Made by a program: the position numbers and the translations under genes
Assembly (NCBI GenBank): GCA_964477955.1
Contig: CAYZGG010000006.1
Coordinates: forward strand, 16,179-80,178
DNA length: 64,000 bases
Origin: an uncultured Opitutaceae bacterium
Lineage (GTDB): Bacteria; Verrucomicrobiota; Verrucomicrobiia; Opitutales; Opitutaceae
Direction of reading: 5' to 3'
The notes under the pieces: model-generated
Database searches by the model: none
Seen by the model: only the letters and a program-made list of their open reading frames with translations
Told to the model about the DNA's origin: nothing
In this document: piece by piece, positions 58 through 39,323 of the stretch
Position numbering within the stretch: position 1 is the stretch's first letter
Layout: the number at the start of each line of letters is the position of its first letter

Positions 58-185
58 AGGTGGAGCCCGACCTCCGGGCAGGCTGATGCACTCGCGCACG
101 CAACGGCTGTGGGCGGGGTGCCCTCACCCCGCTGGTCTTGGTCTTCGCCGCTCACGCCTCGCGGGGTGAGGGCACCCCGCCCACA
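58..185. repeat. REP-like cluster: GTGGAGCCCGACCTCCGGGC unit plus an inverted pair of TGTGGGCGGGGTGCCCTCACCCCG
   Basis: 108-131 and 162-185 are perfect 24-nt inverted copies; 58-89 matches the element at 32114-32145. Confidence 0.85.
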
Positions 186-192
186 TCAAACG

Positions 193-1335
193 CTACGACC
201 GGTCCGCCTTGCGGAACATCCAGACGCCGAGGCTCTGGAACGCGATGTTCGGAATCCACATCAGCAGGTCCGGACGGAGGTCGGGCTGATTTTCGAGCGA
301 CTTAACCGCAATCGTACAGAGATAGTAGACCAGCACGAGAGCGACAGCCACCCCAAAATTCGCGGAAGTCTCTTTGCGCGACACTTTGATACCCAGCGGA
401 ACCCCAAGTAGCGCAAATGCCAATACTGCAAATGCTGTGGCGCACTTTTCCTGTATTACAGTCTGAATCTTGATGCGCTGTTTATCTCGTTCCTTGGCTG
501 GAATTGCAGCATCTGGCAGCAAGAGTCGGTGTCTCTCCGTCATCAACTCCGTGAAAGTCCGCCACTCCAATTTTGTGCGCACTTCCGGTTGCCTAAAGAA
601 TTTCCCAAGCGGAATAGTCTGGGGTACAACCTCCGCACTAAGGGCCCCAGAATTGGAACTGGAGTAATCCTCTGGATCCTTCGAATTGCGGGCTTCGATT
701 ATCGCGTGATGCGCAATCAACTCGATTATGTTTTTCGGCTCGTTGTAGAAGATCTCGGCATTTTCCGCCCGGTAAAGTTTTTCCACCCGCTTCTGTTTGT
801 CTAAATCCCAGACCCAAATGTCGGTCAAGTGCTTGCCCTTCACTTCACCGACATAGATAACTTTATCTTTGAAGATACTTAAAAAGGTTCGCGGAACTAT
901 GAGCTTCAGCGGGTCGGAATTTACGGCCTCGTTTAGGTCCGCTACGTACGCGACCTGAGCGCGCGGCATGTAATAGAAGTTTACGGCAAGGCCCGCTGCA
1001 GTGCCCAAAAGAGCGAAAAAGAAAATCGGCGCGGAAATTCCTGCAACACTCACCCCAGCTGCCCGAATCGCTGTGATCTCACGGTCGGCTGACATCCTGC
1101 CGAGCACCAGGAGGACTCCAGTCAAAATGCCCATCGGCAGAGCATAACATACCATGTACGGCACCGTCAGCACAACCAGATGAACGAAAGTGTAGAAAGG
1201 AAGCTGGCCAGCCATCACATATCCGAGCAAATCCCGAAGTAGGCTTACTAACATCATGATGAACGTCAGTACCCCGACTGCCGCGAGGCTGGTCAGCGCA
1301 ACGCTCGCAAAGATGTGCCGGTCGAGAAGTTTCAT
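193..1335 (-). CDS. lptF: LPS export ABC transporter permease, LptF/LptG family
   Basis: KLLDRHI N-terminus, LGRMSADREITAIRAAGVS motif, 3+3 TM layout, C-terminal WIPNI. Confidence 0.85.
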   Translation of the reverse strand: MKLLDRHIFASVALTSLAAVGVLTFIMMLVSLLRDLLGYVMAGQLPFYTFVHLVVLTVPYMVCYALPMGILTGVLLVLGRMSADREITAIRAAGVSVAGISAPIFFFALLGTAAGLAVNFYYMPRAQVAYVADLNEAVNSDPLKLIVPRTFLSIFKDKVIYVGEVKGKHLTDIWVWDLDKQKRVEKLYRAENAEIFYNEPKNIIELIAHHAIIEARNSKDPEDYSSSNSGALSAEVVPQTIPLGKFFRQPEVRTKLEWRTFTELMTERHRLLLPDAAIPAKERDKQRIKIQTVIQEKCATAFAVLAFALLGVPLGIKVSRKETSANFGVAVALVLVYYLCTIAVKSLENQPDLRPDLLMWIPNIAFQSLGVWMFRKADRS

Positions 1336-1449
1336 CAGTCGGGTGGTAAACCGAGGTTTGGGCGTCAGACGTCAGACCGCAACGACTGACTTTGGCGCCG
1401 GTATTTTTCTTTCAACGCCCCGTCGCTGTCTCTCTACTCGGCCGTTCGC

Positions 1450-2565
1450 ATGAAATTCACGCCGGAAAAGCCGACCGTCTACGGCGAAACCCTCGATTCG
1501 CTCAGCGCGCGCCTGCAGGAAACCGGGCAGCCGTCGTTCCGCGCGCGCCAGGTCCTCGACTGGCTGTACAAAAAACGGGCCCGCTCCTGGGACGAGATGA
1601 CCAACCTCCCGCGCGCCTTCCGCACCTGGCTGGCCGGCGAATTCAACCTCGAACCCACCGCGTTCGTCTCCGACCGGCAGTCGGGCGACGAGACCGACAA
1701 GCTGCTGCTCGAACTGGGCGACAAATCCCTCATCGAAACCGTCATCATCCGCGCCCCCATGCTCGGCGTCGGGATCGACAAATCGCGCAAGACGATCTGC
1801 ATCTCCACCCAGGTGGGCTGCGCCATGGGCTGCAAATTTTGCGCGTCGGGCCTCGCCGGACTGAAGCGCAACCTCTCCGCCGGCGAAATCGTCCACCAGC
1901 TCATCCAGGTCTGCCGGCTGGAGGACGCCCACACGCCGCGGGCCCGCACCGAGCTGGCCTCGTTCGACAACATCGTCGTCATGGGCATGGGCGAACCGCT
2001 GCACAACTACGACGCCACCCTCCGCGCGCTCACCATCGTCAACGCCGAATGGGGCCTCGGCTTCGGTGCGCGGCGCATCACGCTGTCCACCTCCGGCCTC
2101 GTCCCGAAAATCCTCCAGCTCGCCGACGAGCCGCTCGGCCTGCGGCTTGCGATCAGCCTGCATGGCGCCACCGACGCGGTGCGCGAGCAGATCATGCCCG
2201 TCAACCAACGCTACCCCCTGGCCGAGCTGCTGCCGGCCGTGCGGGCGTTCTCCGCCAAACACGGCCGGATGGTCACCCTCGAATTCATCCTGATCGAGGA
2301 GATCAACGACTCGCTCGACCAGGCGGAAAAACTGCGCGACATCGCCCGCGACCTGCACGCCCACGTGAATCTCATCCCCTACAACACGGTGGAAGGCCTG
2401 CCCTGGAAACGCCCGAGCATCACGCGTCAGGAGCGCTTCGCCGACGTTCTGCGCCACGCCCGGGTGCCGGTGACCCTTCGCCGCGAGAAGGGGCACGACA
2501 TCGCCGCCGCCTGCGGGCAGCTGCGACTTCAGACCGAAAAAGCGCGTCAGGCTGTACCCGATTGA
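1450..2565 (+). CDS. rlmN: 23S rRNA (adenine2503-C2)-methyltransferase, radical SAM
   Basis: CISTQVGCAMGCKFC, MGMGEPL and DIAAACGQL motifs. Confidence 0.95.
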   Translation: MKFTPEKPTVYGETLDSLSARLQETGQPSFRARQVLDWLYKKRARSWDEMTNLPRAFRTWLAGEFNLEPTAFVSDRQSGDETDKLLLELGDKSLIETVIIRAPMLGVGIDKSRKTICISTQVGCAMGCKFCASGLAGLKRNLSAGEIVHQLIQVCRLEDAHTPRARTELASFDNIVVMGMGEPLHNYDATLRALTIVNAEWGLGFGARRITLSTSGLVPKILQLADEPLGLRLAISLHGATDAVREQIMPVNQRYPLAELLPAVRAFSAKHGRMVTLEFILIEEINDSLDQAEKLRDIARDLHAHVNLIPYNTVEGLPWKRPSITRQERFADVLRHARVPVTLRREKGHDIAAACGQLRLQTEKARQAVPD

Positions 2566-8328: not shown

Positions 8329-8921
8329 AGAACGCGATGAGATTGCTTGGGCGAGGCCTCCTCGGTGCGCTTCTGACTGGGATAGCAGGTTGCGCGACTG
8401 AGATTCCGGTCACCAAGACGTATTGGCGTCCTGCCTCCACGAATGCGTATGCTTACTCCAATCAGGACGGCGTCGCTCGTTTTGAATTCCGGCACGCTGC
8501 CGGCGTGGTGTTTACCCTTTACCTTGGCGAGTCATCCGAGGCAGATAAGCTGGTGTTCTTCGGAGAATTTTTGATTCCGGCGCATGCGAGAATTCAGTTC
8601 GAGAACCGAGAATTTGAAATAAGCGATAACGCTGGAACCCCAATCACTGCGCAAATCGCCAACTTGGAGATTCTGGACGAACAGACAAAACGAATGGTGA
8701 TAATTCCGGTTGACCGCGAATTGATTGGAGCCAGCAAGACCGCATTGGCGGAAGCCCGGCGCCACCGACTATGCAATTTCTATTCCACGGGTTTTAAAAT
8801 TTCCTCCGCGACCACGGAAATCACCATTCCTACGATCAAAGTGAATGGTGCTATCTGGAGTCTGCCAAAACTCCTGTTGAAAAAGGAAACGGGGAAAGTG
8901 TTTCGCGGTTTTAGTCCCTAG
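8325..8921 (+). CDS. Hypothetical lipoprotein, low GC
   Basis: Signal peptide with lipobox IAG-C; AT-rich codons; alternative start at ATG 8337. Confidence 0.65.
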   Translation: MKNAMRLLGRGLLGALLTGIAGCATEIPVTKTYWRPASTNAYAYSNQDGVARFEFRHAAGVVFTLYLGESSEADKLVFFGEFLIPAHARIQFENREFEISDNAGTPITAQIANLEILDEQTKRMVIIPVDRELIGASKTALAEARRHRLCNFYSTGFKISSATTEITIPTIKVNGAIWSLPKLLLKKETGKVFRGFSP

Positions 8922-38966: not shown

Positions 38967-39323
38967 ATGTCAATTCAAAGAGTCGTGCCAGATATAACGT
39001 CCGAGCGGATGGACGAGAGTCGAAAGTTCTACACGGAATTCCTCGGCTTCGACATCGGAATGGACCTGGGCTGGGTCGTCACATTTGTGTCTCCACAAAA
39101 CCCGACGGCGCAGCTTACCGTCATGCAGGCACAACCGCCCGCGCCGGCGCCCGCGGTCTCCATCGAGGTCGCCGACGTCGATTCGGTGCACGCCAAGGCG
39201 GTGGCGCAGGGCATCCAGATAGTTTATCCGCTGACGTCCGAGCCGTGGGGTGTTCGCCGCTTCTTTGCGGTCGATCCAAACGGCATCGTCATCAATGTCC
39301 TCAGTCACGTCAAAAAATCCTAA
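38967..39323 (+). CDS. VOC/glyoxalase family protein
   Basis: FYTEFLGF, SIEVADVD and EPWGVRRFFAVDPNG motifs. Confidence 0.9.
   Translation: MSIQRVVPDITSERMDESRKFYTEFLGFDIGMDLGWVVTFVSPQNPTAQLTVMQAQPPAPAPAVSIEVADVDSVHAKAVAQGIQIVYPLTSEPWGVRRFFAVDPNGIVINVLSHVKKS

Follow-up and report, generated by a model that had tools for sequence, protein, structure and literature searches.

How does a gene for a housekeeping membrane protein come to carry, between two ends of native composition, an interior whose codon usage is alien to its own genome? The question is raised by lptF of an uncultured soil bacterium of the Opitutaceae (assembly GCA_964477955.1, here G000; 4.5 Mb), which lies in a window of 64,000 nucleotides, the whole stretch of DNA analysed here and a part of contig CAYZGG010000006.1 (C6). 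The gene occupies positions 193..1335 on the reverse strand and codes for an LPS export ABC permease of 380 aa, identified by PF03739 and TIGR profiles and by a structure model. An initial annotation of the window, made from the letters alone, had described an intact frame and a normal LptF, and this description holds: the product matches PF03739 over its full length (profile positions 1-353 of 353, 215 bits) and scores higher with TIGR04407 (LptF, 170.5 bits) than with TIGR04408 (LptG, 122.1 bits), both scores lying below the cut-offs (230 for the curated TIGR04407) and the F/G assignment being one of relative scores. A second paralogue, on contig C49, scores nearer the LptG model. The AlphaFold model keeps the succession of transmembrane helices, periplasmic beta-jellyroll and transmembrane helices (pLDDT 82), and the top Foldseek matches are LptF/LptG chains, with E values down to 2e-13. 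In sequence profile and predicted fold the product is therefore like the LptF of LptB2FG(C) (PDB 8frl_F, 6mhu_F, 6mit_F), although identity to those solved LptF/LptG chains is only 16-18% and, unlike the genes of that complex, lptF and lptG are unlinked in G000. The gene is present in 382 of the 401 family genomes and gives a single BLAST match in the G000 assembly, that is, one copy. From what is known of the family, we take it to serve LPS transport and to be essential.

The alien block, delimited with codon-usage profiles and thus with approximate edges, runs from 301 to 1290 on the reverse strand (codons ~16-345) and shows a GC3 of 0.53-0.62 in every domain. Between 301 and 1260 the count is 186/320, against ~0.86 in the core genes of this genome (binomial p=4e-34), and the block holds rare codons such as TTA (3), CTA (3), ATA (4), GTA (8), CGA (3), AGA (1) and AGG (2). 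These counts had been given in the initial annotation, with AGA and AGG as one sum, together with the 31/35 of the last codons, and every one of them was exact. The 3' tail (193..300, reverse strand), which codes for the conserved last helix, has native composition (the last 35 codons versus the block, Fisher p=0.0004), and the first 15 codons (1291..1335, reverse strand) are native-compatible with a GC3 of 11/15, the genome mean for the first 20 codons being 0.76. The native look attributed to both gene ends was borne out by a synonymous-only likelihood profile, where codons 1-15 are native-like, codons 16 to ~335-345 alien and the last ~40 native. In a change-point fit the block spans codons 29-349; within 2 lnL its 5' limit is fuzzy, lying anywhere in codons 2-32, and its 3' limit falls in codons 332-363. 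GC3 is low even at the 100 conserved residues (0.64, versus 0.55 at variable ones), so the shift does not simply follow from altered amino acids. At four-fold sites the block reads A.19, C.24, G.35 and T.21-.22, versus A.02, C.56, G.36 and T.06 in core genes. Its codon usage is best fitted by accessory-like ORFs of G000 (lnL -374) and by uniform usage (-379), then by lptF of clade B, composed of G005, G011 and G012 (-400), and the core usage of every sampled congener fits worse (-440 or lower); the block thus resembles DNA near mutational equilibrium.

Two observations could have made this block unremarkable according to the initial annotation, namely a value within the spread of the membrane-protein genes of the genome or the same low GC3 in orthologues, and neither was made. 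With 0.62, lptF has the lowest GC3 of 25 membrane-protein genes (median 0.86, next 0.76). When the median GC3 of other core genes (at most 15 per genome) is subtracted, lptF stands at -0.24 in G000, but at -0.08 to +0.06 in 25/25 congeners with an intact lptF match (G015 and G022 gave none at the threshold used) and at -0.06 to +0.16 in 79/79 Opitutaceae of other genera, these being the genomes with usable neighbouring genes out of 80 drawn from top-ranked lptF matches. The three closest congeners have lptF values of 0.63-0.67 on genome backgrounds of 0.71-0.76. Moreover, lptF shows the most negative GC3 difference among 229 G000-G014 orthologue pairs (-0.26; median -0.02, sd 0.04), a sample made of 0.8 Mb plus 8 loci of this one comparator, with lptF, atpB and mnmG among the loci added on purpose. 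A genome-wide percentile of about the lowest 1-2% is indicative only, as some of the genes called de novo are shadow frames, and the orthologue-based sets are preferred; flagellin was dropped as an internal control, its profile being distorted by 100 masked bases. Nor does the drop follow from protein divergence alone, since windows with 40-60% protein identity still average a GC3 of 0.81-0.83 (1627 windows).

A first possibility to weigh is that the block was made by assembly or by design. An assembly of 202 contigs with 1.97% contamination offers some opportunity for a chimera, but contigs from four rhizosphere runs, one of which may be the source sample, carry the same sequence with 0-2 differences across both edges: X1 (157-717) and X4 (107-426) bridge the 3' edge, and X2 (475-1371), X3 (953-1754) and X4 again (1107-1746) the 5' edge, no single piece covering the whole stretch. 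Such contigs make an artefact or an engineered recoding very unlikely. Among the runs listed as carrying the sequence there is no RNA run, which has no bearing on expression in either direction. Recoding was also expected to leave saturated dS with near-zero dN, and this is not what the gene shows: against congeners pS is indeed saturated (0.65-0.80), but pN reaches 0.25-0.30, staying gene-wide well below pS, when LptG gives a lower pN of 0.14-0.20 in the same genome pairs. The suggestion that the shift is concentrated at silent positions is not confirmed: GC1 is shifted too, the amino-acid composition leans to AT-rich codons, as in G005, G011 and G012, and no relative shares more than 54-62% protein identity. 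Codon junctions hold 10 TpA against 19.7 ± 3.1, a depletion like that of natural genes. Altogether, the pN values and the recurrence of the sequence in four runs refute the deliberate or artefactual recoding that had been listed as a third option, and we give a chimera or a recoded gene a negligible chance.

The second option put forward in the initial annotation was a further layer of information in the silent sites, which selection would then maintain for the pacing of translation or for RNA or DNA signals; an overlapping element would be another such role. The third positions of lptF, where a periodicity had been proposed as a sign, show none (Fisher g p=0.75), the longest open stretch in another frame or antisense is as in shuffles (p=0.29), palindromes stay at shuffle level, and neither Rfam matches nor promoter-like sites were found inside the gene. 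The sole exception is a 14-bp inverted repeat (13/14) at 818..854, single copy and picked post hoc, which is predicted to form a stable hairpin inside the block (z=-3.9); such a repeat occurs in the first kb of only 2/150 genes, and of 15 folding windows in lptF one stands at z=-3.1 and another, which overlaps it, at -2.2. However, this hairpin takes up 37 of the ~990 bases of the block and has no counterpart in 16 orthologues, and the low GC3 itself is uniform over the transmembrane and periplasmic domains and not common to orthologues, so that a second layer of information appears very improbable. A replication origin inside lptF was also discarded: the window holds no DnaA-box-like motif, and there is no skew switch at the gene.

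There remains the option named first in the initial annotation, homologous replacement, which is the best-supported reading of the locus. We consider it probable, at roughly 0.6, that the interior of lptF was swapped in place by homologous recombination with a divergent allele of the same genus. Such an allele would have come from the genus pool by crossing over within the conserved stretches at either end of the gene, some 15 codons at the start and 35 at the finish (the 5' zone being weakly resolved), in such a way that promoter, ends and locus stayed native. Its silent sites had likely drifted to mutational equilibrium outside the GC-biased regime of G000, and the donor would be an unsampled one, related to the allele group of G011/G012. 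The event, its direction, the donor and the cause of the donor's low composition are all inferred, and we regard them as likely. In favour of import, the block both begins and stops within lptF, at the points where the conserved ends lie, and lptF joins the marks of a mosaic core gene, i.e., an ancestral locus, a single copy and a bounded tract unlike its flanks. In this regard, the gene adjoins rlmN at nearly all genus loci, as it does here, where an rlmN-like radical SAM methyltransferase gene of native GC3 (0.89) lies at 1450..2565 on the forward strand. The divergent intergenic region between the two (1336..1449, 114 bp), delimited by alignment, looks native, and resembles that of G010, G020 and locus L037, whereas G005, G011 and G012 have a 56-bp type; the long type of G000 may be simply ancestral. 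Synteny downstream of lptF is not common to the aligned loci, and the lptF tail is consequently the last homology available. A 25-bp perfect inverted repeat of a REP-like family sits just downstream, at 108..185. The family is genome-wide (229 BLAST hit lines in G000), with many relatives in the rhizosphere contigs, and the copy at 108-185 gives a weak Rfam miRNA match, far below gathering score.

The replaced part would also account for the protein. The distance of LptF in G000 is 1.33 times the expected one, when 13 other genes give 0.87-1.09 times, and its closest non-self relative is 61-62% identical, versus 80% for LptG. In no comparison with a relative do the synonymous sites fall short of saturation, so that the block edges cannot be mapped by identity. 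Among the lptF matches listed (best 150 of 385; 401 family genomes) none has a near-identical tract, nor does any of the 120 best protein matches, the best of which is 61-62% identical, and it counts against import that no donor was found, that the 5' edge is fuzzy and that no congener core usage fits the block as well as uniform or accessory-gene usage does. A donor outside the genus was rejected, the best identity being 54% among the same listed matches, and no phage-borne lptF was detected in viral contigs by single protein or alignment. Nor is G022 retained as donor, since the pieces of its lptF do not group with G000 with support. The lptF of G022 (G022:C4:15672-16782, L413) is in three pieces, in a genome of 2.2 Mb and 74% completeness where stops also occur in the pyrG and lptB matches; degradation and sequencing error are both possible.

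Phylogeny agrees with an affinity inside the genus and gives a less decided answer on transfer. Concatenated trees place G000 in a six-genome clade with clade B and clade C (G004 and G042), its exact position there being unsettled (p-AU 0.48 for G000 with clade B), and a single-gene discordance with respect to rlmN was dropped on account of this placement. In the LptF tree, G000 joins the G011/G012 group and G005 is left outside (97/97; terminal branch 0.72), a grouping that the concatenation rejects (p-AU 3e-58). On the other side, the species-tree grouping is not rejected by LptF, either with the whole protein (p-AU 0.121) or with the periplasmic domain (0.126). The periplasmic domain of the G005 protein groups with other sequences, and it may therefore be G005, not G000, that is displaced. 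For these reasons a transfer of the lptF interior into G000 is no more than suggested by the trees. Of the two signs of recombination proposed in the initial annotation, the raised pN is thus present, and the discordant tree is well supported as a topology yet short of significance on the LptF data.

An alternative without any import would see the interior of lptF diverging fast in its own lineage and drifting to mutational equilibrium once GC-biased conversion no longer reached it. Mismatched alleles do not recombine, which would have cut the interior off from conversion, and tracts entering through the conserved flanks could have kept both ends native, a detail as tentative as the whole. Several data are consistent with it. 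The best single-gene four-fold fit to the block is the lptF of G022 (A.14, C.26, G.39, T.21), a small genome with fragmented genes that is not the closest relative of G000 by tree, and the compositions are nearly the same. The closest clade also has fast LptF and LptG, with an lptF GC3 0.06-0.08 below background, and in cysS and ileS the variable regions have a low GC3 in more than one lineage at the same time. The placement of LptF is coarsely congruent with the species tree, although this is expected under import and decay alike, as G000 is sister or near-sister of clade B anyway. In the analysis of Lassalle et al. (PMC4450053), as far as it bears on this point, recombining core genes had a higher GC3 in 11/14 bacterial groups, and lptF would be a like case of low GC3 where recombination is scarce; however, that paper deals in averages over gene classes, when lptF shows a sharp intragenic drop of 0.25-0.3. 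Moreover, the effect (-0.24) is absent in every congener and every other family genome compared, 104 in all, which decay in place leaves unexplained, and the lptG, lptA and lptD genes of G000, whose proteins are equally divergent, keep, like lptB, a GC3 of 0.85-0.88. Decay in place would also require long-lived allele divergence in the population, and the listed contigs of the four runs differ by 0-2, a weak objection since contigs drop rare variants. Three cluster members of the lptF product differ by one residue each, in a within-species sample of contigs only. We consider decay in place possible but on the whole unlikely; if true, lptF would record GC-biased gene conversion with unusual sharpness inside a single gene.

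The proposed replacement of the lptF interior has counterparts elsewhere in the genus. Between G014 and G002, lptF (L012, L022) gives pS/pN of 0.47/0.14, versus 0.18-0.31/0.00-0.06 for 11 other genes, its first 40 codons being normal, and the lptA of G041 (L156) carries a segment of the G014/G002 type where its sister G021 (L155) has the G019 type. The atpB tree is discordant with the species tree, as G000, G004 and G042 join G043 and G016 with a support of 100; in G000, atpB and atpE (G000:C2:28887-30039, L312) have GC3 of 0.67 and 0.69, and the adjoining atpF and atpA are native. In cysS, the gene for cysteinyl-tRNA synthetase, mutually dissimilar blocks of low GC3 (0.3-0.5) stand between conserved high-GC3 ends in 5/16 genomes (G000, G005, G011, G012 and G007), the 11 other congeners lacking them (loci L414-L428); in these five the block lies in the C-terminal helical region and is longer than in most congeners, that of G000 (gene at G000:C92:108-1589, reverse strand) covering codons ~341-440. 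A bolder view of these cases is that a few essential genes of this lineage (lptF, the anticodon-domain region of cysS and atpB) behave like antigen cassettes. A stock of divergent alleles that have drifted to AT would supply them with new interiors time and again, since soil phages, toxins or antibiotics attack their proteins or enter the cell through them. Low-GC3 interiors would then flag essential proteins engaged in an arms race, an idea that we regard as speculative and rather improbable. If the recurrence in lptF, lptA, cysS and atpB did reflect exchange driven by antagonists, a scan of intragenic GC3 would be a cheap way to find attacked essential proteins in uncultured bacteria. Lpt-pathway genes, including lptG of G021 and G041, show block-wise allele mosaics among close congeners.

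Replacement in place, as we read it for lptF, goes by the term xenologous gene displacement in situ. Both the homologous replacement of core genes and low-GC exchanged alleles at fixed loci are already known (PMC3542582; bioRxiv 10.1101/2023.10.25.564063). The cases described by Williams, Gogarten and Papke (PMC3542582) are core genes homologously replaced between species, this being in their account the usual mode of core-gene transfer in haloarchaea, and lptF resembles them in its ancestral locus, single copy, divergent allele and native flanks. It differs from them, as there presented, in that the exchanged tract is confined to part of a single gene, no sampled genome represents the donor and the departure of the gene tree from the species tree falls short of significance (AU p=0.12). 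No precedent for mosaicism or a codon anomaly in lptF was found in a literature search restricted to open-licence PMC and bioRxiv. As matters stand, lptF illustrates clearly how a core gene can be a mosaic, and indicates that Lpt-pathway alleles move between congeners despite working in a multi-protein machine. As to cassettes, the central domain of flagellin is one such variable region, and the pilA of Vibrio another. The latter is described as a cassette-like variable gene with tree incongruence and about 9% lower GC (bioRxiv 10.1101/2023.10.25.564063). What lptF has in common with cassettes of this type is that a fixed place in the chromosome, with conserved ends, is occupied by a divergent allele of low GC; in contrast to them, as they are described, LptF is an inner-membrane housekeeping permease and no surface antigen, and no co-existing divergent alleles were seen in the contigs.

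Some other regions of low GC3 deserve a mention. The mnmE-mnmG genes (G000:C2:22333-25630, L312) have, almost throughout the genus, a GC3 below that of the other core genes, which points to a conserved regional effect. A cause shared with lptF was discarded, as the drop in mnmE and mnmG is genus-wide and that of lptF is not. GC skew on the same contig changes sign near 24 kb. The variable 3' region of ileS (G000:C61:~700-950, L313) has a reduced GC3 in G000 and in the 5/5 congeners checked. Within the window, a 194-aa ORF at 8337-8921 on the forward strand, between genes that by sequence appearance are metF-like and sucA-like, has a lipoprotein-like N-terminus, a GC3 of 0.56 and no Pfam match, and a glyoxalase/VOC-domain gene at 38967-39323, also on the forward strand, lies within a low-GC stretch.
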